Positions 13,848-46,752 of a DNA stretch of 64,000 bases are shown piece by piece. This DNA comes from Escherichia phage KK4. Below the pieces are notes generated by a model. The model made no database searches. It had not been told where the DNA came from and saw nothing but the letters and a program-made list of their open reading frames with translations. A program made the translations under genes and the position numbers. The stretch is from the sequence record OR327750.1; one strand, 5' to 3'. Numbering within the stretch: the first letter of the stretch is position 1; every line of letters starts with the position of its first letter.

Positions 13848-14173
13848 TTAAACCATCCTTTAATACGTTGCCATAAAGTTTTCTGTTGAGCTTTGTTAAC
13901 ACCAATTGAACGAATAACTGGTTGAGATTCCTGAAATTCTTTATAATCAGCAAGGTAAATTTCGTAAGCTGCATCCGTAAATGAACTTATCGCTGCCATA
14001 AAATTATTGCGAATACCTACTGGAGCATCTTTACTTTCACGAATAATCATGTATTTACCAGTCTTAATCTTTACGATAGTTCCAAGATAAGCTCCATGGT
14101 ACCAGATGTCCCAACCCTCTTGAGTAGGTTCTACACAACGACGAAGTTCATTGACAATTTCTAACTTGTTCAT
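13844..14173 (-). CDS. hypothetical protein (109 aa)
   Basis: track ORF, ATG start. Confidence 0.55.
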   Translation of the reverse strand: MNKLEIVNELRRCVEPTQEGWDIWYHGAYLGTIVKIKTGKYMIIRESKDAPVGIRNNFMAAISSFTDAAYEIYLADYKEFQESQPVIRSIGVNKAQQKTLWQRIKGWFK

Positions 14174-14183
14174 TATTTATTCC

Positions 14184-14819
14184 TCACAGTTCAGATGCTA
14201 CAGTGATTACAGCTTCAATGTTTTCTGCCGAGCGTTTAATGTCAAGATACACATTACCGTTTTTAGCGATTTTACATGACATTCCGATATCAGTAAATTT
14301 CTGAATATGATGTTCCATCATTTTGTATCCAAAAATTCGCATATTTCCATTATTGTTAATTTCAAAATTACGAATTCCGTGAGTGCGTTTTTCTAAAATG
14401 GCAAGATAATTACTACGATAAGTTTCAACCTTTTTAAGAACAAATCCATTTTCATCTAAAAGTTTTAACATGAGGTCTTTATCTTCTTCCATATCAGAAG
14501 TAATCTCACGAGCTTTACGAGTTGCTCGTTTTTTCAGTAGTTCCGGAGCATTTTCTTGCGCGTATAAAGTTGCTGCATTTGAAATAATATCCTGAGCTTC
14601 ACCAGTAATGATTAATCCATCACCAGATTTCTCCACCAGGCCTTTTTTAATCAATACCCCAATATTACTATTAACTACTGCGTTACCTAAATCTGGATGC
14701 ACCTCACGAACTTCTGCAGCTGTAATGAAATCTTTCTTAGCAATAGTAATTAAAATCGCAGCAGTTTTTTCATTCAGAACATCGTTAGAAGCTTTGATGA
14801 TGTAAGTTACTTTAGACAT
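14184..14819 (-). CDS. motA: middle-transcription activator MotA
   Basis: 211 aa MSKVTYIIKASNDVLNEKTAAILITIAKKDFITAAEV... Confidence 0.92.
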   Translation of the reverse strand: MSKVTYIIKASNDVLNEKTAAILITIAKKDFITAAEVREVHPDLGNAVVNSNIGVLIKKGLVEKSGDGLIITGEAQDIISNAATLYAQENAPELLKKRATRKAREITSDMEEDKDLMLKLLDENGFVLKKVETYRSNYLAILEKRTHGIRNFEINNNGNMRIFGYKMMEHHIQKFTDIGMSCKIAKNGNVYLDIKRSAENIEAVITVASEL

Positions 14820-14856
14820 TTTAATCTCCGTTTCAGTTCATTTATTTGATAGGTCT

Positions 14857-14885
14857 ATAGTATCATGTTTAAAGCAGAAGTAAAC
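14857..14885 (-). promoter_or_regulatory. early promoter cassette (copy of repeated promoter-stem-loop element)
   Basis: revcomp GTTTAC at 14880-14885 and TACTAT at 14857-14862; shared motif with 15201, 18853, 46635. Confidence 0.5.
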
Positions 14886-14924
14886 ACTTTTTTGCACTCT
14901 TTTTCAAGAGCTCTAATAAAGTAC

Positions 14925-15152
14925 TTACTTAATGTTCAGATTACGAACTTCGATTTCGTCTTCATGGGCAAAATCAAACTGTTTGAATTCTGTGCCACCT
15001 TTAAATTTAAAAATCATTGTGAAGAAAGTCAGAACACCAGGTTTTTCTTCACGAACTCCACAGATATCATATTCAATACCATCTACAACCAGTTTGTTAG
15101 CAGTCAGAGCATTTTTAGCTTTAACGATTTCGTTTTCGATTTTAAATTTCAT
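14925..15152 (-). CDS. hypothetical protein (75 aa), motA.1 position
   Basis: track ORF, ATG start. Confidence 0.5.
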   Translation of the reverse strand: MKFKIENEIVKAKNALTANKLVVDGIEYDICGVREEKPGVLTFFTMIFKFKGGTEFKQFDFAHEDEIEVRNLNIK

Positions 15153-15200
15153 TTTTGTATCTCCGGGTTGTTTGTTTCAGTTCATTTATTTGATAGTTGT

Positions 15201-15230
15201 ATAGTACCATAAAGCTTTATGCTTGTAAAC
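15201..15230 (-). promoter_or_regulatory. early promoter cassette with palindrome in spacer
   Basis: revcomp GTTTAC 15225-15230, TACTAT 15201-15206, CATAAAGCTTTATG palindrome between. Confidence 0.5.
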
Positions 15231-15261
15231 CGTTTTGTGAAAAAAATTTTAAAATAAAAAA

Positions 15262-15281
15262 GGGAGAGCCGAGGCTCTCCC
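15262..15281. terminator. GC-rich hairpin flanked by A/T runs (possible bidirectional terminator)
   Basis: GGGAGAGCC-GA-GGCTCTCCC flanked by A-rich and T-rich tracts. Confidence 0.4.
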
Positions 15282-15286
15282 TAAAA

Positions 15287-15436
15287 TTACTGCATGACTG
15301 TGATAACTGTCATGATAACACGTTGAATTCCGAACGCAAGAAGACCTCCTGCTACGGCTGGAACAACGCCTAAACCCGTCAGTAAAATGCTACCAGATAC
15401 TAATGCAGCGCTTGTAATACCAATGAATGGACTCAT
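15287..15436 (-). CDS. small hydrophobic membrane protein (49 aa)
   Basis: hand-translated MSPFIGITSAALVSGSILLTGLGVVPAVAGG...; ATG overlaps gene 52 stop. Confidence 0.45.
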   Translation of the reverse strand: MSPFIGITSAALVSGSILLTGLGVVPAVAGGLLAFGIQRVIMTVITVMQ

Positions 15437-16761
15437 TTGATTTCCTCTAAATCTTTGGTGTATTCGGTAACTACATCAGTAGTTTTCCAATATTCGTTTT
15501 CTTCTTTTTTAGCTTTAGCTTCTTCAGCAAGTTTCTTTGCTTCGTCGGAAGTCATATGAAAAATATTCATTCCGACTAGTTTATCAACATAAGAAGAATA
15601 CATATCAATTTTAGAAAGTTCTTCGGTCAGTTCTTTGCGAGTTTTACCCTGCACAACAATTTCACCTGAAATTACTTTCTTAATGAAATGTGCCTTGGCA
15701 AAGGCTAAACGAAATGCTGATTCAGTTTCTTTGATTTTGTTATCAATTCGTTTTTGGACATAAGTTTTACGAACTTCAACAAAGTCTTTAATTAAATCAA
15801 CTACGTTATCGTAAACTTGCAGCTTTCCTTTCTCATTAATGACTGTAATATTCTGAGAACGACGCTCAATCAGTCCGAAGTCTTTCATAATTTTTGCATG
15901 GCGTTCTTCTTCATTATCGCTCAAAGAGTATTCTTTTCGGAATTTAACTTTGAATCCAAAACCATGCTCACCACAAGCATCATCCCATGTAATGAAGCCT
16001 TTATCTTCAAGTGGGTCTAAGATTTTACTCACATAAGTTTCACGATCATACTTATACGGAATCTCAGTGATATGCATTTGAGTTCGTGAAGTAAACTTAT
16101 ATGTTCCACGAATTTCATATTGCCCATCAATTTCAACGACTTCACCACGAAATTCTGGGAATTCTACCTTCGGTTTAGTTACTTTCTTTCCTTGAAGAGC
16201 TTGCAGTACAGCTTTCTTAACAGAAGAAACACTATGAGGAAGAATGTAAGTTGCATAACCAGTTGCAATACCGGAAACGCCATTAAGAAGAACAGTAGGA
16301 ATAACAGGCAAATAGAAAGCAGGCGGAATGTGTTCTTTATCTTGATGTACCGGAGCATATTCAGTATCTTTATATACGTTATAGAAATTTTTACTTACAC
16401 GAGCAAAAATATAACGACTTGCTGCTGCCTTTTGGACAGTACGAGAACCAAAGTTTCCTTGACCGTCTAACAGAGGAAAGTTATTATTCCAAGTGTTAGC
16501 CATCAAAGCACCTGCGTCTTGCGCAGAGTTTTCACCATGATGATATCCAAGGTCCGCTACACCACCTGCGATAGAAGCGAGCTTATGAAACTTATCTTTA
16601 TTTCCTCGTGCCAAATCAAGAGCTCGAGCAATAACAAATCGTTGAACTGGCTTAAATCCGTCAATCATATTTGGAATGGCACGATTTTCAACCGTGTACA
16701 TAGCATAAGCCAATGCTTCATTATCAATGATACTTTTTAAATCACGATTATTCAGTTGCAT
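15433..16761 (-). CDS. 52: DNA topoisomerase II medium subunit gp52
   Basis: 442 aa MQLNNRDLKSIIDNEALAYAMYTVENRAIP... Confidence 0.93.
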   Translation of the reverse strand: MQLNNRDLKSIIDNEALAYAMYTVENRAIPNMIDGFKPVQRFVIARALDLARGNKDKFHKLASIAGGVADLGYHHGENSAQDAGALMANTWNNNFPLLDGQGNFGSRTVQKAAASRYIFARVSKNFYNVYKDTEYAPVHQDKEHIPPAFYLPVIPTVLLNGVSGIATGYATYILPHSVSSVKKAVLQALQGKKVTKPKVEFPEFRGEVVEIDGQYEIRGTYKFTSRTQMHITEIPYKYDRETYVSKILDPLEDKGFITWDDACGEHGFGFKVKFRKEYSLSDNEEERHAKIMKDFGLIERRSQNITVINEKGKLQVYDNVVDLIKDFVEVRKTYVQKRIDNKIKETESAFRLAFAKAHFIKKVISGEIVVQGKTRKELTEELSKIDMYSSYVDKLVGMNIFHMTSDEAKKLAEEAKAKKEENEYWKTTDVVTEYTKDLEEIK

Positions 16762-16765
16762 AAAT

Positions 16766-16906
16766 TTACCATACTAGTGAATGTAGTGCCATAATAACAT
16801 CAGAAATGAAAAGCACGACTTGAATTAATCCGAACATTATTCCGTAATATAATGCTATCAATAAAATAGCAAGGGCTAATGAATAGCCCAAGATTTTCTT
16901 AATCAT
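16766..16906 (-). CDS. small membrane protein (46 aa), 52.1 position
   Basis: hand-translated MIKKILGYSLALAILLIALYYGIMFGL... Confidence 0.4.
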   Translation of the reverse strand: MIKKILGYSLALAILLIALYYGIMFGLIQVVLFISDVIMALHSLVW

Positions 16907-17057
16907 TAGTAGATAACAACACAAATGTTAAATATGCACACATACCCTGAGCTAAAGCTTGCGAAAACACACTGCTGGCATCAATACAGATAGTTAAAAC
17001 ACATGCTACTATCCAACAAATAAATGAAATAACTCCTAATAATTTTGCGATATTCAT
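16899..17057 (-). CDS. ac: small membrane protein (52 aa), probable ac (acridine sensitivity) homologue
   Basis: hand-translated MNIAKLLGVISFICWIVACVLTICID...; position between 52 and stp as in T4. Confidence 0.45.
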   Translation of the reverse strand: MNIAKLLGVISFICWIVACVLTICIDASSVFSQALAQGMCAYLTFVLLSTND

Positions 17058-17064
17058 ATTTTCC

Positions 17065-17145
17065 TCACTGGCGTCCGAAGACGCCTTTAGTTTTAAGATT
17101 ATTACGATAGAACTGCATCACATGTTCGTTATGGAAATTACTCAT
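17065..17145 (-). CDS. stp: Stp peptide (26 aa; activator of PrrC/EcoprrI anticodon nuclease)
   Basis: hand-translated [26 protein letters not shown], identical to T4 Stp as I recall it; ATG overlaps ndd stop; GGCGUCUUCGGACGCC hairpin inside 3' end. Confidence 0.85.
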
Positions 17146-17603
17146 TAATATGCCTGCAAAACAAATTTAAAGTTATCAGCCAACATACGGTTCATTTCTT
17201 CAAGTGTTTGATACTCAGAATGATGATTACGAGTAAACGCTAAAGCTAACTGTCCTTTTCCAAATCCCGTCGTCAGAGGTTTCATCTTAGAAGCAGGCAG
17301 ATAAAATACTGTGTATACCATATTGTTATTTGCAATAGTACGTGCAAGCTGAGACCGACGTTGACGAATATGACTTAGAACTGCACTGAATCCTTGCTTA
17401 GAACGCTGATTACCTACATAAAATCGTGCAGACACACATGGATTACTAAATGGACGACCATCTAATTTACTTACTAAAAAATAAAATCCAGGTTTAGATA
17501 AAATATCTTTATGCGGAGTTCCCAAAAACCACTCACCACCCTTGATTGTACCAATAACAGTAGCGCCTGCATTATTCAGATCAGTAACAGTCATGTATTT
17601 CAT
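17145..17603 (-). CDS. ndd: nucleoid disruption protein Ndd
   Basis: [26 protein letters not shown]...; ATG at 17601-17603 (track ORF starts upstream). Confidence 0.9.
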
Positions 17604-17661
17604 ATTAATTTCCTCTAAATTATTTTCTACTCCAAGGCCACATGAATACGCGGCCATTAAA

Positions 17662-17877
17662 TTAATCGTCGCAGTCGACGCTCAATTCCCAAAACTCTTC
17701 TACTGTATAAGTTTCAGTATCATTTTCAATACAGAAACGTTCATTACTATTATTTGCTAAAGTAGCATTAACTGTCGGTTTCTCGCTAGTGCTCTTAAGA
17801 GGTGAAATACGAATTAACTGATCACCGTTATCTAAACAGAAAATTTCACCAACTTTTACATCTTTAAAACTTTTCAT
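17662..17877 (-). CDS. hypothetical protein (71 aa), ndd.1 position
   Basis: track ORF, ATG start. Confidence 0.5.
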
Positions 17878-17992
17878 AATTCACCTCAAGGAGTATAAAA
17901 TCCAAATGCAGTTGTTGACCATCCCATCCAATATGGGAAATTTGCACCAATGTAAAACATGAGAATATAAAACCAACCACTCAGCAAATTCA

Positions 17993-18190
17993 TCATTTTA
18001 CACCATTCCAAATTGTTTCAACCACAGATTTTAAACCATTTTGATGAATATCCATTCCGACTACCGCCATCAAATAGATTCCAACTACAACTGAACCTAA
18101 GGCAAAAATCAGCATGAAAATGAATAAAGCCGGAAAAATATTATCGAAAAACCATTCAATAAATGTAAAAGCACTGCGTTTACGCTTCAT
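17993..18190 (-). CDS. small membrane protein (65 aa)
   Basis: ATG at 18188-18190 with GAGGAAA SD; track ORF extends to upstream alt start; one TM helix. Confidence 0.5.
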   Translation of the reverse strand: MKRKRSAFTFIEWFFDNIFPALFIFMLIFALGSVVVGIYLMAVVGMDIHQNGLKSVVETIWNGVK

Positions 18191-18197
18191 ATTTTCC

Positions 18198-18311
18198 TCA
18201 CATAAATCCAAAGTAAACGTTTAATACATCAATCATTAAAACGATTGGGAATATGCTCAAAACTATTAGTATTATAACTACATTCCATATAGCTTTAATA
18301 ATCTTTTTCAT
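18198..18311 (-). CDS. small membrane protein (37 aa)
   Basis: ATG at 18309-18311 with GGAGGA SD; MKKIIKAIWNVVIILIVLSIFPIVLM...; 82-aa track ORF starts at TTG. Confidence 0.4.
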   Translation of the reverse strand: MKKIIKAIWNVVIILIVLSIFPIVLMIDVLNVYFGFM

Positions 18312-18339
18312 TTTCTGTTCCTCCGTAGTTGATAGGGTA

Positions 18340-18369
18340 ATAGTACCACGGAAGAACAGTCTTGTAAAC
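18340..18369 (-). promoter_or_regulatory. early promoter cassette
   Basis: revcomp GTTTAC 18364-18369, TACTATT 18340-18346. Confidence 0.45.
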
Positions 18370-18554
18370 AACTTTTTTAAAAATATTCGTAATAAATGTG
18401 AATACCAACTACTACCGCTGAAACCTGTGCAACCCACCACGCACAAGCAATAAGTACAGAATTTAAAATTTTCATAATAACCTCATTACAAAAGTAAATG
18501 TTAAACAAATTACTGGAATACTAATTAACCAAACAAAACACCACCATAGTGAAC

Positions 18555-18818
18555 TCATAGTTCAATCTCAGCGATTTTCATTTCATTACTATTAATAGCC
18601 TCTTTAAGACTATCTGAAAGAATTACATTCCAGTGGTCATTCATATGACCATTAACTAAGCGTGTAATTTCTTCAGGAGTTGAAAAATAAGGCTGATCGG
18701 ACTCCCAATGCGATAATCCTAAGCGAGTATAAATCATGCCTTCATCATCGCTAGAATATTCAACTGACACAAACTCATCAGTTATTTTATGCTTAGCATA
18801 ATAAAATTTAAATTTCAT
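18555..18818 (-). CDS. hypothetical protein (87 aa)
   Basis: ATG at 18816-18818 preceded by GGAG SD. Confidence 0.5.
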   Translation of the reverse strand: MKFKFYYAKHKITDEFVSVEYSSDDEGMIYTRLGLSHWESDQPYFSTPEEITRLVNGHMNDHWNVILSDSLKEAINSNEMKIAEIEL

Positions 18819-18852
18819 TTTACTCTCCAAATCCGTATCAGTTGATAGTTGT

Positions 18853-18882
18853 ATAGTACCACGGTCCTTGTGGTATGTAAAC
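18853..18882 (-). promoter_or_regulatory. early promoter cassette with stem-loop in spacer
   Basis: revcomp GTTTAC 18877-18882, TACTAT 18853-18858, TACCAC..GTGGTA stem between; near-identical to 46605-46690. Confidence 0.5.
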
Positions 18883-18903
18883 CGTTTTGTGAAAAAATTT
18901 TTT

Positions 18904-19461
18904 TTAAATGGAAAGATACCATCCGTTGTAGTTGCTTTTTCTTACAACCTTACGAAGGTCTTCTCTGTCACCGATGAACTTCGGAGTGTACTGGATGACA
19001 CCTGGATGAATTTCTTTAGTGTTGAATATAATTATACAGTCAGCGACTTGATGATTTAGAATGGGCCCTAGATTTATTCCAGAACCATATGGATACTCTC
19101 CGCTGCATCCTGTTGTCACCGAAATCCAACGTGAGTCAGTTTGATGTGTCTTAACTTCTACACGAAGCCCGCAGTATCTTGGATGCGCCAATACATCCCA
19201 TGCATATGTGTACGGATCATCGACATCTTCTTGACCTTTATTAACATACCCGCTTAGCCAATCTGCTACAAAAAACTCTGCGTATACAGCAATACGACAT
19301 CTTTCAATAACTTCTGCTTTATCCTGGTTCGGGTTTTGTTTTAAAGAGTATCTTGCAGTATCAGCAATTTTGACCTTCATTTCACTAGTCAAGTCACTGT
19401 TCGATAGGGTAAATGTCGGAATCTGAAATAGTCTCTGTAAACCCGGATTCGTTTTCTGCAT
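18904..19461 (-). CDS. denB: endonuclease IV DenB
   Basis: 185 aa MQKTNPGLQRLFQIPTFTLSNSDL...; position next to rIIB. Confidence 0.9.
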   Translation of the reverse strand: MQKTNPGLQRLFQIPTFTLSNSDLTSEMKVKIADTARYSLKQNPNQDKAEVIERCRIAVYAEFFVADWLSGYVNKGQEDVDDPYTYAWDVLAHPRYCGLRVEVKTHQTDSRWISVTTGCSGEYPYGSGINLGPILNHQVADCIIIFNTKEIHPGVIQYTPKFIGDREDLRKVVRKSNYNGWYLSI

Positions 19462-19528
19462 TTAGACTTTCCTTTTATGTCTGAATCACTGGTATTCATA
19501 TAATAAATCATAATTTCTCTTAAAACAA

Positions 19529-19544
19529 AAGGGCCGAAGCCCTT
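19529..19544 (-). terminator. CUUCGG hairpin with U tract downstream of the 64-aa ORF
   Basis: on - strand AAGGGC-UUCG-GCCCUU then UUUGUUUU. Confidence 0.55.
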
Positions 19545-19547
19545 ATT

Positions 19548-19742
19548 TTATTTGAATTGTGCAATTCTTTTCTCTAGACATTCAGCATAAGATTTCATTG
19601 AGATAAACTGCGAAAGTAACAGTTCTTGCTCAACTGCATTAACTGTTAGAAACTTTGCGCTTTCTAAAAATTTGCTCAGTGCATTAATTTTGAGCATTAA
19701 TTGATCGTATTCTTCTTTTACTCGTGCTTGATAACCTAACAT
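19548..19742 (-). CDS. hypothetical protein (64 aa), denB.1 position
   Basis: track ORF; GAGGAAA SD. Confidence 0.5.
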   Translation of the reverse strand: MLGYQARVKEEYDQLMLKINALSKFLESAKFLTVNAVEQELLLSQFISMKSYAECLEKRIAQFK

Positions 19743-19758
19743 AATTTTCCTCAGTTAA

Positions 19759-19770
19759 GGGCCGAAGCCC
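19759..19770 (-). other. intercistronic CUUCGG RNA hairpin between rIIB stop and next SD
   Basis: GGGCUUCGGCCC directly after rIIB UAA, no U tract. Confidence 0.5.
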
Positions 19771-20709
19771 TTATTTAAATTGTTCAGTAACGTCTTCAAC
19801 TACTTCGTATTGGCAGGTACGCATTTTAGCGTCGTTGTAATCAATCGGAATTGATACCACATCGCGAGGATGCACTTTAACTTTTACAACTCGACTAGTT
19901 GAACTGCCAAAGTGACGAATATAAGATTTAGAACACACATGCAGACCACGAGAACAAGTTTGTGTATCATCGTCATTCACACGAGTACGTGGCATTTTAA
20001 CTACTTTACCCGGACTGTTATCAAAGGTGTTTGAGTGACAGTCAAAGTAGTTGTCACGAACTACTTTCCAAGCATAGAAGTAACCATCTTCTGTAATTTC
20101 AATATCATTTGCTACCAAGAAATCAAAGAGTCGAGATACCGCTTTTTGGCTTGGGTTTTCCAGCAGATTTTCCAAGAACGGAAAATAAAATTCAAAGTTT
20201 TCACCTTTTTCCATCGAATCGAGAATACGATCAACCAGACCAGACCGTAATTCGATATTTTGATAGAACAAGCTTCCACCTTCAATTCGAACATCGCCGG
20301 AAATATATTTTTCAACAGCGCGACGAACATTAATTTTTTGTGCCGCTTCTTCCAACTTATCCGCTACAAGCAGATTAAGAATTTCCTGGAAGTTTGAATG
20401 AGTATTAGGAGTTGCGTTATAAGTTACACCGTCAACAGTAATTGAAATGAATTTTTTAGATGCATTCCAAATAATGTCAGATTTAGCAACTGGAGCAATA
20501 ACTGCATCGCTATTAACTTTAACTGTAATATCACCACTAATAGTAACTTTAGGGCGTTTAGCTTCTTCAGCATTTTTCAAAACACGACGGATTGTGTCAA
20601 CCGATACACCTTGCCAATCAGCCAATTCCTGTTGGGTGTAATTACCACTTGAATACAGCTTAACAATTTCAGCTTGTTCGTTTTTGGTCAGGCATTTAAT
20701 ATTGTACAT
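19771..20709 (-). CDS. rIIB: rapid-lysis/RexAB-exclusion protein rIIB
   Basis: 312 aa; downstream of and coupled to rIIA. Confidence 0.92.
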   Translation of the reverse strand: MYNIKCLTKNEQAEIVKLYSSGNYTQQELADWQGVSVDTIRRVLKNAEEAKRPKVTISGDITVKVNSDAVIAPVAKSDIIWNASKKFISITVDGVTYNATPNTHSNFQEILNLLVADKLEEAAQKINVRRAVEKYISGDVRIEGGSLFYQNIELRSGLVDRILDSMEKGENFEFYFPFLENLLENPSQKAVSRLFDFLVANDIEITEDGYFYAWKVVRDNYFDCHSNTFDNSPGKVVKMPRTRVNDDDTQTCSRGLHVCSKSYIRHFGSSTSRVVKVKVHPRDVVSIPIDYNDAKMRTCQYEVVEDVTEQFK

Positions 20710-46219: not shown

Positions 46220-46600
46220 TCACTTAGTCAAATTTTTTACACATGAATTATAAGAATTCACTACATACTCCATCGGAGCATTTTTACCTGTACGCCACTG
46301 GTAATTATTAGCCCAATTTGCCCAAAGCTCGGCACAGTAGTTTTCAATTTTTTCTTCGCGCGTAATTACATCAGAATTACGATATGCTTGAGCAGATTCA
46401 TCTGGACGAATAGCTTCGTCAAAATTCGCCTGCATTTGTTCTACTGTTTGCTTTGGAGCTTCTTTATAACACTTGACATTAGGATTATAAAATTTGCTTG
46501 AACAGTTTACAATTTTTCCTACATCAGACTGATTTACTACCGGTCCTTGAGCTACACAACCAGTAAGACCTAATGCAATAACCAAAATAGCGATTTTCAT
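46220..46600 (-). CDS. putative lipoprotein (126 aa)
   Basis: ATG at 46598-46600 with GGAG SD; lipobox LTGC. Confidence 0.55.
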   Translation of the reverse strand: MKIAILVIALGLTGCVAQGPVVNQSDVGKIVNCSSKFYNPNVKCYKEAPKQTVEQMQANFDEAIRPDESAQAYRNSDVITREEKIENYCAELWANWANNYQWRTGKNAPMEYVVNSYNSCVKNLTK

Positions 46601-46634
46601 TTCATTCTCCAAATCCGTATCAGTTGATAGTTGT

Positions 46635-46664
46635 ATAGTACCATGGAAGAACATGGATGTAAAC
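46635..46664 (-). promoter_or_regulatory. early promoter cassette with stem-loop
   Basis: revcomp GTTTAC 46659-46664, TACTAT 46635-46640, CCATG..CATGG stem. Confidence 0.5.
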
Positions 46665-46752
46665 AGTTTTGTGAAAAAATTTTTAGGGAATTCTAAAGGT
46701 CCAGAATCATCTGTTTTTCATAAGTATAGATTTATATTACTTGTATGAAAAA

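Follow-up and report, generated by a model that had tools for sequence, protein, structure and literature searches.

The analysed window is a 64,000-nt stretch of Escherichia phage KK4 (OR327750.1). It is 100% identical to phage GADU22, a Tequatrovirus, and its motA-denB region is ~96% identical to that of T4. Within this region, four minus-strand promoter-leader cassettes (c1 to c4) precede motA, ORF75, ndd.4 and ORF87, at the places where a preliminary description had put them:

14817-14912, minus strand: c1, directly 5′ of motA; GTTTAC 14885-14880, TACTAT 14862-14857, predicted +1 A 14850, GGAG 14829-14826, motA ATG 14819-14817
14925-15152, minus strand: ORF75 (phrog_10955), bracketed by c2 and c1; 75 aa, no hydrophobic segment
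15150-15260, minus strand: c2, 5′ of ORF75; GTTTAC 15230-15225, TGG-TACTAT with TACTAT at 15206-15201, predicted +1 A 15194, GGAG 15164-15161, ORF75 ATG 15152-15150
18309-18395, minus strand: c3, 5′ of ndd.4; GTTTAC 18369-18364, TGG-TACTAT with TACTAT at 18345-18340, predicted +1 A 18333, GGAGG 18324-18320 (GGAG 18324-18321), ndd.4 ATG 18311-18309
18377-18475, minus strand: ndd.5, 32 aa, hydrophobic, between c4 and c3
18472-18558, minus strand: ndd.6, 28 aa, hydrophobic, between c4 and c3
18555-18818, minus strand: ORF87 (phrog_2390, PST ORF268), first gene after c4; 87 aa, acidic, no hydrophobic segment
18816-18910, minus strand: c4, 5′ of ORF87; GTTTAC 18882-18877, TGG-TACTAT with TACTAT at 18858-18853, predicted +1 A 18846, GGAG 18828-18825, ORF87 ATG 18818-18816

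The GTTTAC, TACTAT −10 and GGAG Shine-Dalgarno (SD) motifs reported earlier were thus located by coordinate in all four cassettes. GTTTAC is followed after a 17-18 nt gap by TGn-TACTAT, with TG directly 5′ of the −10 in 4/4 copies, and then by a leader of 29-47 nt carrying the SD. In c1 the gap is 17 nt (16 nt counted from TTTACT) and TGA precedes TACTAT. The leaders of c1 (ATCAAATAAATGAACTGAAAC) and c2 are of type B, and that of c4 (ATCAACTGATACGGATTT) is of type A. The A/T-rich upstream element that had been ascribed to every copy holds for c2, c3 and c4 and fails for c1. Scored against the E. coli UP-element consensus, reportedly due to Estrem et al. in 1998, c2 is near consensus (14/17), c4 likewise reaches 14/17, c3 13/17 and c1 9/17; scores of at least 14 occur at 0.0001 of background positions. 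The c1 promoter is a weak match altogether, with 8/12 to the sigma70 hexamers at 16-nt spacing from TTTACT, and in T4 the site is occupied by another promoter allele. The c2 sequence is that of the T4 motA promoter from the A/T-rich tract through GTTTACAA, except for a one-base shift in the A/T runs. Cassettes c3 and c4 have orthologs in T4, the sequences 5′ of ndd.4 and ndd.6, to which they are >90% identical. The c3 cassette is kept in T4 and in 8/8 relatives, and no indel lies beside it in these eight sampled relatives.

These four cassettes are a local cluster inside a window-wide family rather than a unique set. Searching for GTTTAC-N16-18-TAYHAT gave 15 minus-strand matches and none on the plus strand, far beyond chance, since dinucleotide shuffles gave a mean of 0.185 and a maximum of 2. 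Cassettes c1 to c4 all fit into 4.1 kb, whereas the window as a whole averages one motif per 4.3 kb, and the 95-bp c4 cassette matches ~5-6 places per Tequatrovirus genome. Among the members outside the cluster is:

46598-46700, minus strand: c5, between gene 43 (DNA polymerase) and an imm.1-like gene

Leaders vary widely among the 15 promoters, yet c1 and c2 share 23 nt exactly and c4 and c5 share 38 nt exactly, the latter covering the −10, +1 and leader (TGGTACTATACAACTATCAACTGATACGGATTTGGAGA). The similarity within the cluster is lower than had been described. More than 30 consecutive identical bases were claimed between 15165-15250 and 18835-18905; in fact no exact run exceeds 22 nt (TTTTTTCACAAAACGGTTTACA), with 82% identity over 61 nt. 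Calling the copies near-identical was likewise an overstatement because c3 is only 64% identical to c2 over the same stretch.

The most probable reading, to which we assign a probability of about 0.85, is that each copy joins a strong early promoter for host sigma70 to a short leader and a ribosome-binding site (RBS) containing GGAG, and that PeSL (promoter-early stem-loop) shuffling between c2 and c1 is a side effect. The anatomy agrees with the published consensus for T4 early promoters, namely GTTTAC at −36 to −31, A-rich sequence at −40 to −44 and GT-rich sequence 5′ of −12 (PMC1524935), described elsewhere as 'UP/-35/TGn/-10' (PMC2988021), and with the T4/PST PeSL promoter TTTACW-N17-TAYWAT (PMC4122927). 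Accordingly, the core of the preliminary description, T4-type early promoters and leaders fitting the PeSL concept (PMC2839356, PMC4122927), was borne out. The UP element would recruit the RNA polymerase alpha C-terminal domains, with GTTTAC(A/T) forming the −35 region and TGn-TACTAT an extended −10, and transcription would start at the A 7 nt downstream of the −10 (14850, 15194, 18333 and 18846). T4 counterparts of these predicted starts are at about 163637, 166771 and 167050. Firing would need no phage protein and is expected during the first minute of infection; T4 motA RNA and protein are seen at 1 min (PMC9697503). In this arrangement c1 would serve motA, c2 ORF75, c3 the run from ndd.4 to motA.1, and c4 the run ORF87-ndd.6-ndd.5. 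RegB cleaves GGAG in early ribosome-binding sites, with the consensus GGAGRAYARAA (PMC3014915). The leaders match this consensus at 8-10/11 positions, with 10/11 in the SD context of c1, and their GGAG SD makes them plausible RegB/S1 cleavage targets through which expression could be shut off.

Gene content between the copies, which had been proposed as a check on the cassettes, is not invariant across relatives: it differs at ORF75, at ORF87 and in phage a48. ORF75 is absent from T4, 7/8 sampled relatives and a48, and is found in ~137 of ~520 Tequatrovirus-level records. Its flanking cassettes contain a 37-nt direct repeat with arms spaced 344 nt apart, a putative recombination substrate for ORF75 loss:

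14830-14866, minus strand: downstream arm; the arms share 92% identity and an exact 23-nt core, CTATCAAATAAATGAACTGAAAC
15174-15210, minus strand: upstream arm, spanning the −10, +1 and leader of c2

A synthetic 112-nt chimera, with c2 upstream and c1 downstream, matches a48 at 100% in one piece. The a48 order is gp52, motA.1, a single promoter and motA. Relative to the window, a48 is identical at 1273/1273 positions down to 15174 and restarts at 14866; it aligns to both repeat arms with a clean 344-bp loss between them that includes ORF75, and the crossover lies within the 23 nt that c2 and c1 share exactly. On this alignment, a48 has the exact chimeric promoter expected from c2 × c1 recombination. 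It is the only recombinant of the predicted type among ~900 records, and its junction may have originated in assembly or laboratory passage. The majority T4-type motA promoter does not come from a simple c2 × c1 exchange: its spacer differs and its leader is of type A.

ORF75 homologs in Jiaodavirus, Gelderlandvirus and Karamvirus each lie behind their own early-promoter cassette. The Jiaodavirus homolog adjoins a tRNA cluster, not motA, and those of Gelderlandvirus and Karamvirus are found among unnamed genes with a second cassette directly 3′ of the gene. Subsets of cassettes share 20-40 nt of identity beyond what promoter function needs, and so could act as dispersed, same-orientation homology patches. 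Rare homologous recombination between copies would then delete the intervening gene and the reverse would insert it, always leaving a working promoter and RBS. The junctions and allelic states are direct observations, from which we infer the direction and mechanism of each event. At the sequence level, PeSL modular shuffling is shown at this locus for the c2/c1 pair around ORF75.

The slot 3′ of denB behaves differently. It occurs in four states: no gene in T4, ORF87 in GADU22, ORF68 plus ORF87 in VIPECOOM01 and PST, and ORF68 in RB6 and G157lw. ORF87 is present in ~268 Tequatrovirus-level records and reduced to an 8-codon remnant in T4; ORF68, which is PST ORF269, is absent from the window. 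One border of the indels beside c4 is an SD-ATG microhomology of 8-10 nt, and the other is the end of a gene. Cassette-bounded indels, proposed earlier as something to look for, are found at c2/c1, around ORF75, and not at c4, where two promoter copies are not the bounds. Gene gain and loss through this microhomology would constitute a second route.

These junctions speak for the rival reading that the copies are plain early promoters only, their similarity reflecting selection on polymerase signals and gene turnover reflecting generic microhomology or illegitimate recombination. The T4 ORF87 deletion and the ORF68 indel are both joined at the SD-ATG microhomology rather than at two promoters, and no c4 × c3 chimera was seen among the best database matches. 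Three of the five indel sites of at least 12 bp in eight relatives touch a cassette; the other two, at 17441 within ndd and at 17052 in PST, have none adjoining. With only 3 copies in 64 kb, the SD-ATG motif does not qualify as a dispersed repeat, and spacer hairpins are at chance level. Nonetheless, this explanation is unlikely. The a48 junction falls exactly in the 23-nt c2/c1 repeat, with flanks 100% identical, and ORF75 homologs follow a cassette in three other genera, away from motA in Jiaodavirus. Furthermore, the 23-nt and 38-nt identical leader stretches occur in subsets only and at freely varying positions, which argues for common descent or gene conversion and against convergence.

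The proposal that the cassettes bracket small, poorly conserved membrane-protein genes proved largely wrong: the variable genes look soluble and the membrane mini-genes are conserved. Variation between relatives affects ORF75, ORF87 and ORF68; no hydrophobic segment was found in the first two, and ORF68 was judged soluble-looking by eye from its charged sequence. The TM-like motA.1, 52.1, ndd.2a/3, ndd.4, ndd.5 and ndd.6 show 91-100% amino acid identity across the sampled Tequatroviruses (93-100% for ndd.6 and ndd.5). The sole exception among the TM-like mini-genes is ac, with a second allele 38-43% identical in RB68 and G157lw.

A stem-loop can be supported statistically in only one of the four cassettes:

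15261-15282, minus strand: intrinsic terminator, 3′ of motA.1 and immediately 5′ of c2; AGGGAGAGCC-TCGG-CTCTCCCT, then TTTTTTATTTT

Its stem has 9 pairs, 6 of them G-C, followed by a T run, and the 97-nt stretch that includes it folds at −21.4 kcal/mol (z −2.97; 1/200 shuffles as good). The inverted repeat described in each spacer folds no better than shuffled spacers (z −0.03, −0.15, +1.35 and −1.43 for c1 to c4; Stouffer Z −0.27 across all 15 promoters), the palindrome CATAAAGCTTTATG in the c2 spacer included. These results bear on a stricter PeSL model, in which each cassette is a composite promoter-terminator whose stem-loop attenuates upstream read-through and insulates mini-operons. The strong terminator before c2 fits such a model, as does a 6-bp c4 spacer hairpin (TACCAC-aaggacc-GTGGTA, −6.7 kcal/mol). 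Terminator activity was reported for one RB49/phi1 PeSL stem-loop, and spacer stem-loops were allowed (Arbiol 2010, PMC2839356). However, the c4 hairpin reaches a z of only −1.1 to −1.4, the weak c1 hairpin (GCTCTT-GAAA-AAGAGT, 14911-14896) has a z of +0.48, and neither is followed by a T run. Whole-cassette folds are no better than shuffles in c1 (+0.48), c3 (+1.21) and c4 (−0.45), and c3 has no stem-loop (z +1.21 and +1.04). In c3 the UP element shares sequence with the 3′ end of ndd.5, stop codon included, and in c4 it begins at the denB stop codon, so upstream read-through is expected. The stricter model is therefore decidedly doubtful. A dedicated site-specific system mobilising the cassettes like integron attC sites is highly improbable: single-gene units with their own promoter and RBS do occur across genera, at a non-motA site at least in Jiaodavirus, and the introduction of PMC4122927 states that Arbiol 2010 left site-specific recombination open, but no recombinase gene was found at the locus and no conserved structured core in the cassettes, the denB-slot junctions differ in sequence, and the a48 crossover could lie anywhere in the 23-nt identical run, as homologous recombination predicts.

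Early promoters with occasional homologous exchange, our preferred reading, place the finding in a class that is real but already known, since PeSL cassettes have been described. Both T4 early promoters and PeSL cassettes are in the literature, and the denB-ndd locus itself has been treated there for T4 versus PST (Comeau 2014, PMC4122927). The T4 early promoter consensus (Liebig & Rueger 1989, Wilkens & Rueger 1994 and Miller et al. 2003, relayed by Hinton 2010, PMC2988021, and Nolan 2006, PMC1524935) is matched in its GTTTAC at −36 to −31, TGn extended −10, TA(C/T)(A/T)AT and A/T-rich UP-like element, and in its position 5′ of early genes on the early-transcribed strand with a GGAG SD. There is no difference in kind; c1 with ORF75 is an allele missing from T4, whose motA promoter differs in its spacer and has a type-A leader.

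The T4/PST PeSLs (PMC4122927) share the TTTACW-N17-TAYWAT promoter, an AT-rich upstream region, a 3′ SD plus ATG, and hyperplastic regions beside differential ORFs, and Fig. 6A of that paper deals with the same denB-ndd locus. They differ in that a stem-loop is demonstrable in only one of the four cassettes here. PST retains both ndd.5 and ndd.6, so its difference from T4 at denB-ndd is not a swap of ndd genes but an indel joined at SD-ATG microhomology. Integron gene cassettes are a functional analogy only, being small single-gene units gained or lost at defined intergenic joints; no integrase or attC structure is present here, each unit has its own promoter, and recombination appears to be homology-driven.

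A further close parallel is the excision model for ORF192 of RB49/phi1 (PMC2839356), in which an ORF between two cassettes in one phage gives way to one chimeric cassette in a near relative. The RB49/phi1 PeSLs have near-perfect TTGACA/TATAAT promoters and G-rich/C-rich stem-loops with shown terminator activity, and their crossover lies in the AT-rich region, unlike the c2/c1 crossover in the −10/leader repeat. Their mini-circles were shown physically. GADU22 and a48 nonetheless reproduce at ORF75 the exact topology of the ORF192 model.

The region from 14500 to 19300 matches Escherichia phage GADU22 (OQ944321, a Tequatrovirus) at 100% identity and several hundred T4-like phages at 94–98%. All of its genes are carried on the minus strand, in the order motA, ORF75 (75 aa), motA.1, gene 52, 52.1, ac, stp, ndd, ndd.1–ndd.6, ORF87 (87 aa) and denB. 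The region is collinear with T4 (NC_000866) at ∼96% identity, with two exceptions: a 344-bp segment with ORF75 and a 226-bp segment that makes up most of ORF87 are extra in the window. Four minus-strand cassettes, each with a promoter, a leader and a Shine–Dalgarno (SD) sequence, lie where a preliminary description had placed them, and the 3-kb interval between the second and third includes topoisomerase subunit gene 52. These copies (c1–c4), a fifth cassette (c5) and a gene remnant discussed below are as follows.

14817–14912, minus strand: c1, cassette upstream of motA; predicted transcription start at 14850
15150–15260, minus strand: c2, cassette upstream of ORF75 (14925–15152); predicted transcription start at 15194
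18309–18395, minus strand: c3, cassette upstream of ndd.4; predicted transcription start at 18333
18816–18910, minus strand: c4, cassette upstream of ORF87 (18555–18818); predicted transcription start at 18846
46598–46700, minus strand: c5, cassette between gene 43 (DNA polymerase) and an imm.1-like gene
18555–18587 plus 18813–18824, minus strand: ORF87 remnant junction; in T4, ∼166994–167020 of NC_000866 (L001)

In predicted function, c1–c4 are T4 early promoters. The E. coli UP-element consensus used to score their upstream regions is reportedly that of Estrem and colleagues from 1998. An A/T-rich upstream element had been claimed for every copy; this holds for the UP-like stretches of c2 (14/17), c3 (13/17) and c4 (14/17) and only weakly for c1 (9/17), scores of at least 14 being reached at a background frequency of 1e-4 of positions. 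The rest of the expected anatomy was found in all four. GTTTAC is exact in each and lies 17–18 nt from TACTAT; the extended −10 element, which in this promoter class is TGn and then TA(C/T)(A/T)AT ∼17 nt from the −35 hexamer, is TGG-TACTAT with a 17-nt spacer in c2–c4 and TGA-TACTAT with a 16-nt spacer, counted from TTTACT, in c1. CTATCAA is conserved around the predicted start, and the predicted leaders (22–42 nt from +1 to ATG) end in a GGAG SD 5–7 nt before the ATG. Each cassette precedes a gene on the strand that is transcribed early, to which it supplies a short leader and an SD. T4 early promoters share this anatomy, with GTTTAC at −36 to −31, an A-rich UP-like stretch, a GT-rich segment before −12 and an extended −10 element (PMC1524935), and those of the ‘UP/-35/TGn/-10’ type out-compete host promoters (Hinton review, PMC2988021). 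With its poor UP score and shorter spacer, c1 is weaker than the other copies; it lies directly upstream of motA, in T4 an early gene whose RNA and protein are present at 1 min (PMC9697503). Both c3 and c4 are orthologs of T4 sequences, upstream of ndd.4 and ndd.6, respectively, and c2 matches the T4 motA promoter from the upstream A/T-rich tract through GTTTACAA, save for a one-base shift in A/T runs. Public T4 dRNA-seq data are available under GEO GSE255091. The GGAG SDs of the leaders agree with the RegB/S1 cleavage consensus GGAGRAYARAA (PMC3014915) at 8–10 of 11 positions, and RegB could plausibly shut off these leaders. An Rfam search of 14000–20000 with E up to 1 yielded no match close to a gathering score; the conserved leaders correspond to no RNA family described in Rfam.

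The four cassettes are members of a window-wide family. Across the 64-kb window, GTTTAC-N16-18-TAYHAT has 15 matches on the minus strand and none on the plus strand, against a mean of 0.185 and a maximum of 2 matches in dinucleotide-preserving shuffles; the motif is real, and c1–c4 form a denser patch of it (four in 4.1 kb versus one per 4.3 kb overall). Only a T4-specific consensus separates signal from noise here; a generic sigma70 scan of 14000–20000 gave an uninformative 22 sites versus 23.5 expected. The copies had been called near-identical, which overstates their likeness: c2 and c4 are 82% identical over 61 nt and c3 reaches merely 64% over the same stretch. Likewise, the run of more than 30 identical consecutive bases reported between 15165–15250 and 18835–18905 shrinks to 22 nt at its longest. 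A closer pair is formed by c5 and c4, which share 38 identical consecutive bases covering the −10 element, the start and the leader up to GGAGA, more than any pair among c1–c4. This identity suggests gene conversion or duplication of promoter–leader modules across 28 kb.

The short inverted repeat thought to occupy each spacer did not survive comparison with randomized sequence. Folding was assessed against whole-sequence shuffles and spacer-only shuffles across all 15 promoters, and spacer inverted repeats were not enriched (combined Stouffer Z −0.27); the spacer-only z values were −0.03 for c1, −0.15 for c2, +1.35 for c3 and −1.43 for c4. The single robust stem-loop among the four cassettes is an intrinsic terminator at 15261–15282, just upstream of c2 (fold z −2.97). 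Promoter-early stem-loop (PeSL) cassettes are expected to carry a stable stem-loop in or next to the promoter, able to serve as terminator or attenuator; such a feature is convincing for one cassette of four, and c1, c3 and c4 fold no better than shuffles.

Gene content between the copies, which the preliminary description had held up as a check, varies across relatives. The c2/c1 pair provides the strongest evidence for cassette-mediated shuffling. The two cassettes lie on either side of ORF75, and a 37-nt direct repeat (−10 element, start and leader; 92% identical, with a 23-nt exact core) is common to them at a spacing of 344 bp. When a synthetic c2/c1 recombinant sequence of 112 nt was searched against the phage collection, phage a48 (OQ067375) matched it in one piece at 112/112 nt (100%). 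In a48, gene 52 and motA.1 are followed by one promoter and motA, and ORF75 is missing; the sequence is identical to the window at 1273/1273 positions as far as 15174 and picks up again at 14866, a clean 344-bp deletion whose crossover falls within the 23-nt exact run. In place of two copies with an ORF between them, a48 has one chimeric cassette and lacks that ORF, as the PeSL model has it. Excision of ORF75 by this route would yield a circle with a c1-upstream/c2-downstream junction (...GTTTACTTCTGCTTTAAACATGATACTATAGACCTATCAAATAAATGAACTGAAACAAACAACCCGGAG...). ORF75 is present at ≥95% identity in ∼137 of ∼520 Tequatrovirus-level records. Distant homologs occur in Jiaodavirus, Gelderlandvirus and Karamvirus, each behind an early-promoter cassette of its own that ends in GGAGAATAAAATG; a second cassette lies directly 3′ of the homolog in Gelderlandvirus and Karamvirus, and the Jiaodavirus homolog adjoins a tRNA cluster instead of motA. 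At motA, the majority T4-type promoter represents a third allele, in which both spacer and leader are different. Derivation of T4 from GADU22 by simple loss of ORF75 was rejected because the T4 promoter departs from the c2/c1 chimera in both of these parts, and the T4-type motA promoter is not a simple deletion product.

The slot downstream of denB behaves differently from the c2/c1 pair. Directly after c4, T4 has nothing; GADU22, vB_Eco_CP and RB68 have ORF87; VIPECOOM01, JLBYU24 and Yersinia phage PST have ORF87 together with ORF68, a small gene absent from the window; and RB6 and G157lw have ORF68 alone. The states in T4, GADU22, PST and RB6 therefore represent all four ORF68/ORF87 combinations. 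The junctions in this slot are 8–10 nt microhomologies at an SD/start-codon module (GAGTAAAATGAAA), not two promoter copies. T4 retains an unannotated in-frame 8-codon remnant of ORF87 (ATGAAAATCGCTGAGATTGAACTATGA, MKIAEIEL) whose stop overlaps the ndd.6 ATG (ATGA); RB6 and G157lw carry this remnant as well, behind ORF68, and it may keep ndd.6 translationally coupled. In PST, ORF268 and ORF269 are the ORF87 and ORF68 genes. The published comparison of T4 with PST describes an ‘exchange of ndd.4/.5 for ORF268/269’ (Comeau 2014, Fig. 6A legend, PMC4122927). Both ndd.5 and ndd.6 remain encoded in PST (100% by tblastn; unannotated, L014 3738–3916), so this exchange looks like a plain indel.

Indels of at least 12 bp fall at five sites among eight relatives. 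Three touch a cassette; the two away from any cassette are a 15-bp indel within ndd and a 166-bp indel adjoining ac in PST. No indel lies beside c3 in these relatives. Nor was a natural c4 × c3 recombinant, lacking ORF87, ndd.6 and ndd.5, present among the best database matches, as these were all two-piece and spanned ∼600 bp. It is conceivable, though we consider it unlikely, that the joint for small-gene gain and loss here is the translation-initiation module itself (GGAG/GAG, 1–2 nt, TAAAATG(AAA)) and not the promoter or stem-loop, with deletions selected in frame and MKIAEIEL a functional leader ORF in T4. If so, in-frame deletions through the module would keep translational coupling to the next gene, and the PeSL model at the T4/PST denB–ndd locus would shift from promoter-mediated exchange to microhomology-mediated indels. 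As a general joint the module is a weak idea, because the SD–ATG motif, with only 3 copies in 64 kb, is not a dispersed repeat.

The cassettes had also been said to bracket poorly conserved membrane-protein genes. This claim is unsupported because the variable ORFs are non-membrane and the mini-genes with transmembrane (TM)-like segments, save ac, are conserved. ORF75 and ORF87 are without a hydrophobic segment, and ORF68 is charged and soluble-looking in translation, as judged by eye; motA.1, 52.1, ndd.2a/3, ndd.4, ndd.5 and ndd.6 show 91–100% aa identity in the sampled Tequatroviruses. Pfam yielded no family for ORF75, ORF87, ndd.4, ndd.5, ndd.6 or motA.1; PHROGs places ORF75 and ORF87 in unknown-function families and otherwise gives merely unknown-function or name-only labels. 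The exception, ac (16899–17057), exists as a second allele of 38–43% aa identity in RB68 (L006) and G157lw (L008), while the flanking 52.1 and stp remain 93–100% identical; one mini-gene alone has been replaced by another allele here, and no promoter cassette adjoins it. PST (L014) has a second, T4-like, unannotated ac copy at 2100–2252, which matches the 166-bp insertion at window position 17052. In T4, ndd.3 (26 aa) and ndd.2a (40 aa) appear to be a split version of one gene: the window and all eight other sampled relatives (PST by tblastn only) have a single TM-like ORF of 65 aa in their place (window 17993–18190, minus strand).

Other repeats and hairpins were seen in the region. Two 26-nt copies of a G+C-rich hairpin (AAGGGCCGAAGCCCTT), 92% identical and with T runs on either strand, lie at 19529–19554 and 19757–19782 and bracket the 64-aa denB.1 between rIIB and denB; here a lone small gene is flanked by a repeat of a second kind. 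The plus strand carries a terminator-like hairpin (GGCGTCCGAAGACGCC) at 17065–17085, within the 26-codon stp; its tail is T-rich, and it runs antisense to the early genes. Of practical note, several GenBank annotations carry seemingly spurious ORFs over the early promoters. A ‘hypothetical protein’ spans c4 (18815–18922, minus strand), with ORFs of 33–35 aa in GADU22 and vB_Eco_CP (L004 4278–4379), and the downstream gene is started at an in-frame ATG upstream of the c4 promoter in RB68 (120 aa; L006 4002–4364) and JLBYU24 (101 aa; L005 4288–4593). ORFs annotated over c4, or from upstream of it, look like annotation artefacts.

Catalogues of T4 early promoters date back to the late 1980s. Papers of 2010 and 2014 set out the PeSL shuffling model and take in the denB–ndd locus of T4 and PST (PMC2839356, PMC4122927), which serves as an example in the T4/PST comparison (Comeau 2014, PMC4122927). 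The cassettes match the T4/PST PeSL promoter consensus TTTACW-N17-TAYWAT (Comeau 2014, PMC4122927), with a sigma70-like early promoter, an AT-rich upstream region and a 3′ SD and start codon, and they lie in a hyperplastic region, with ORF75 between c2 and c1 and ORF87 and ORF68 right after c4. In their evolutionary behaviour the cassettes fit PeSL in every feature tested save the stem-loop, convincing in one of four. The preliminary likening to PeSL elements stands at its core and is unsupported for most stem-loops and for the membrane genes; the observation is real and its details overstated. As the promoters and the PeSL model are already in the literature, the phenomenon is a described one and carries little weight for discovery; the a48 chimeric promoter and the denB-slot microhomology junctions add a little to it and do not amount to a new type of element. 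Three points make up this modest gain. Spacer stem-loops lack statistical support as part of these T4-type cassettes, and neighbouring indels use SD–ATG microhomology, not promoter pairs. Finally, GADU22 and a48 differ at ORF75 in the same topology as proposed for ORF192 in RB49 versus phi1 (Arbiol 2010, PMC2839356), and their comparison appears to supply a clean natural chimeric-promoter excision product in the T-even subgroup.
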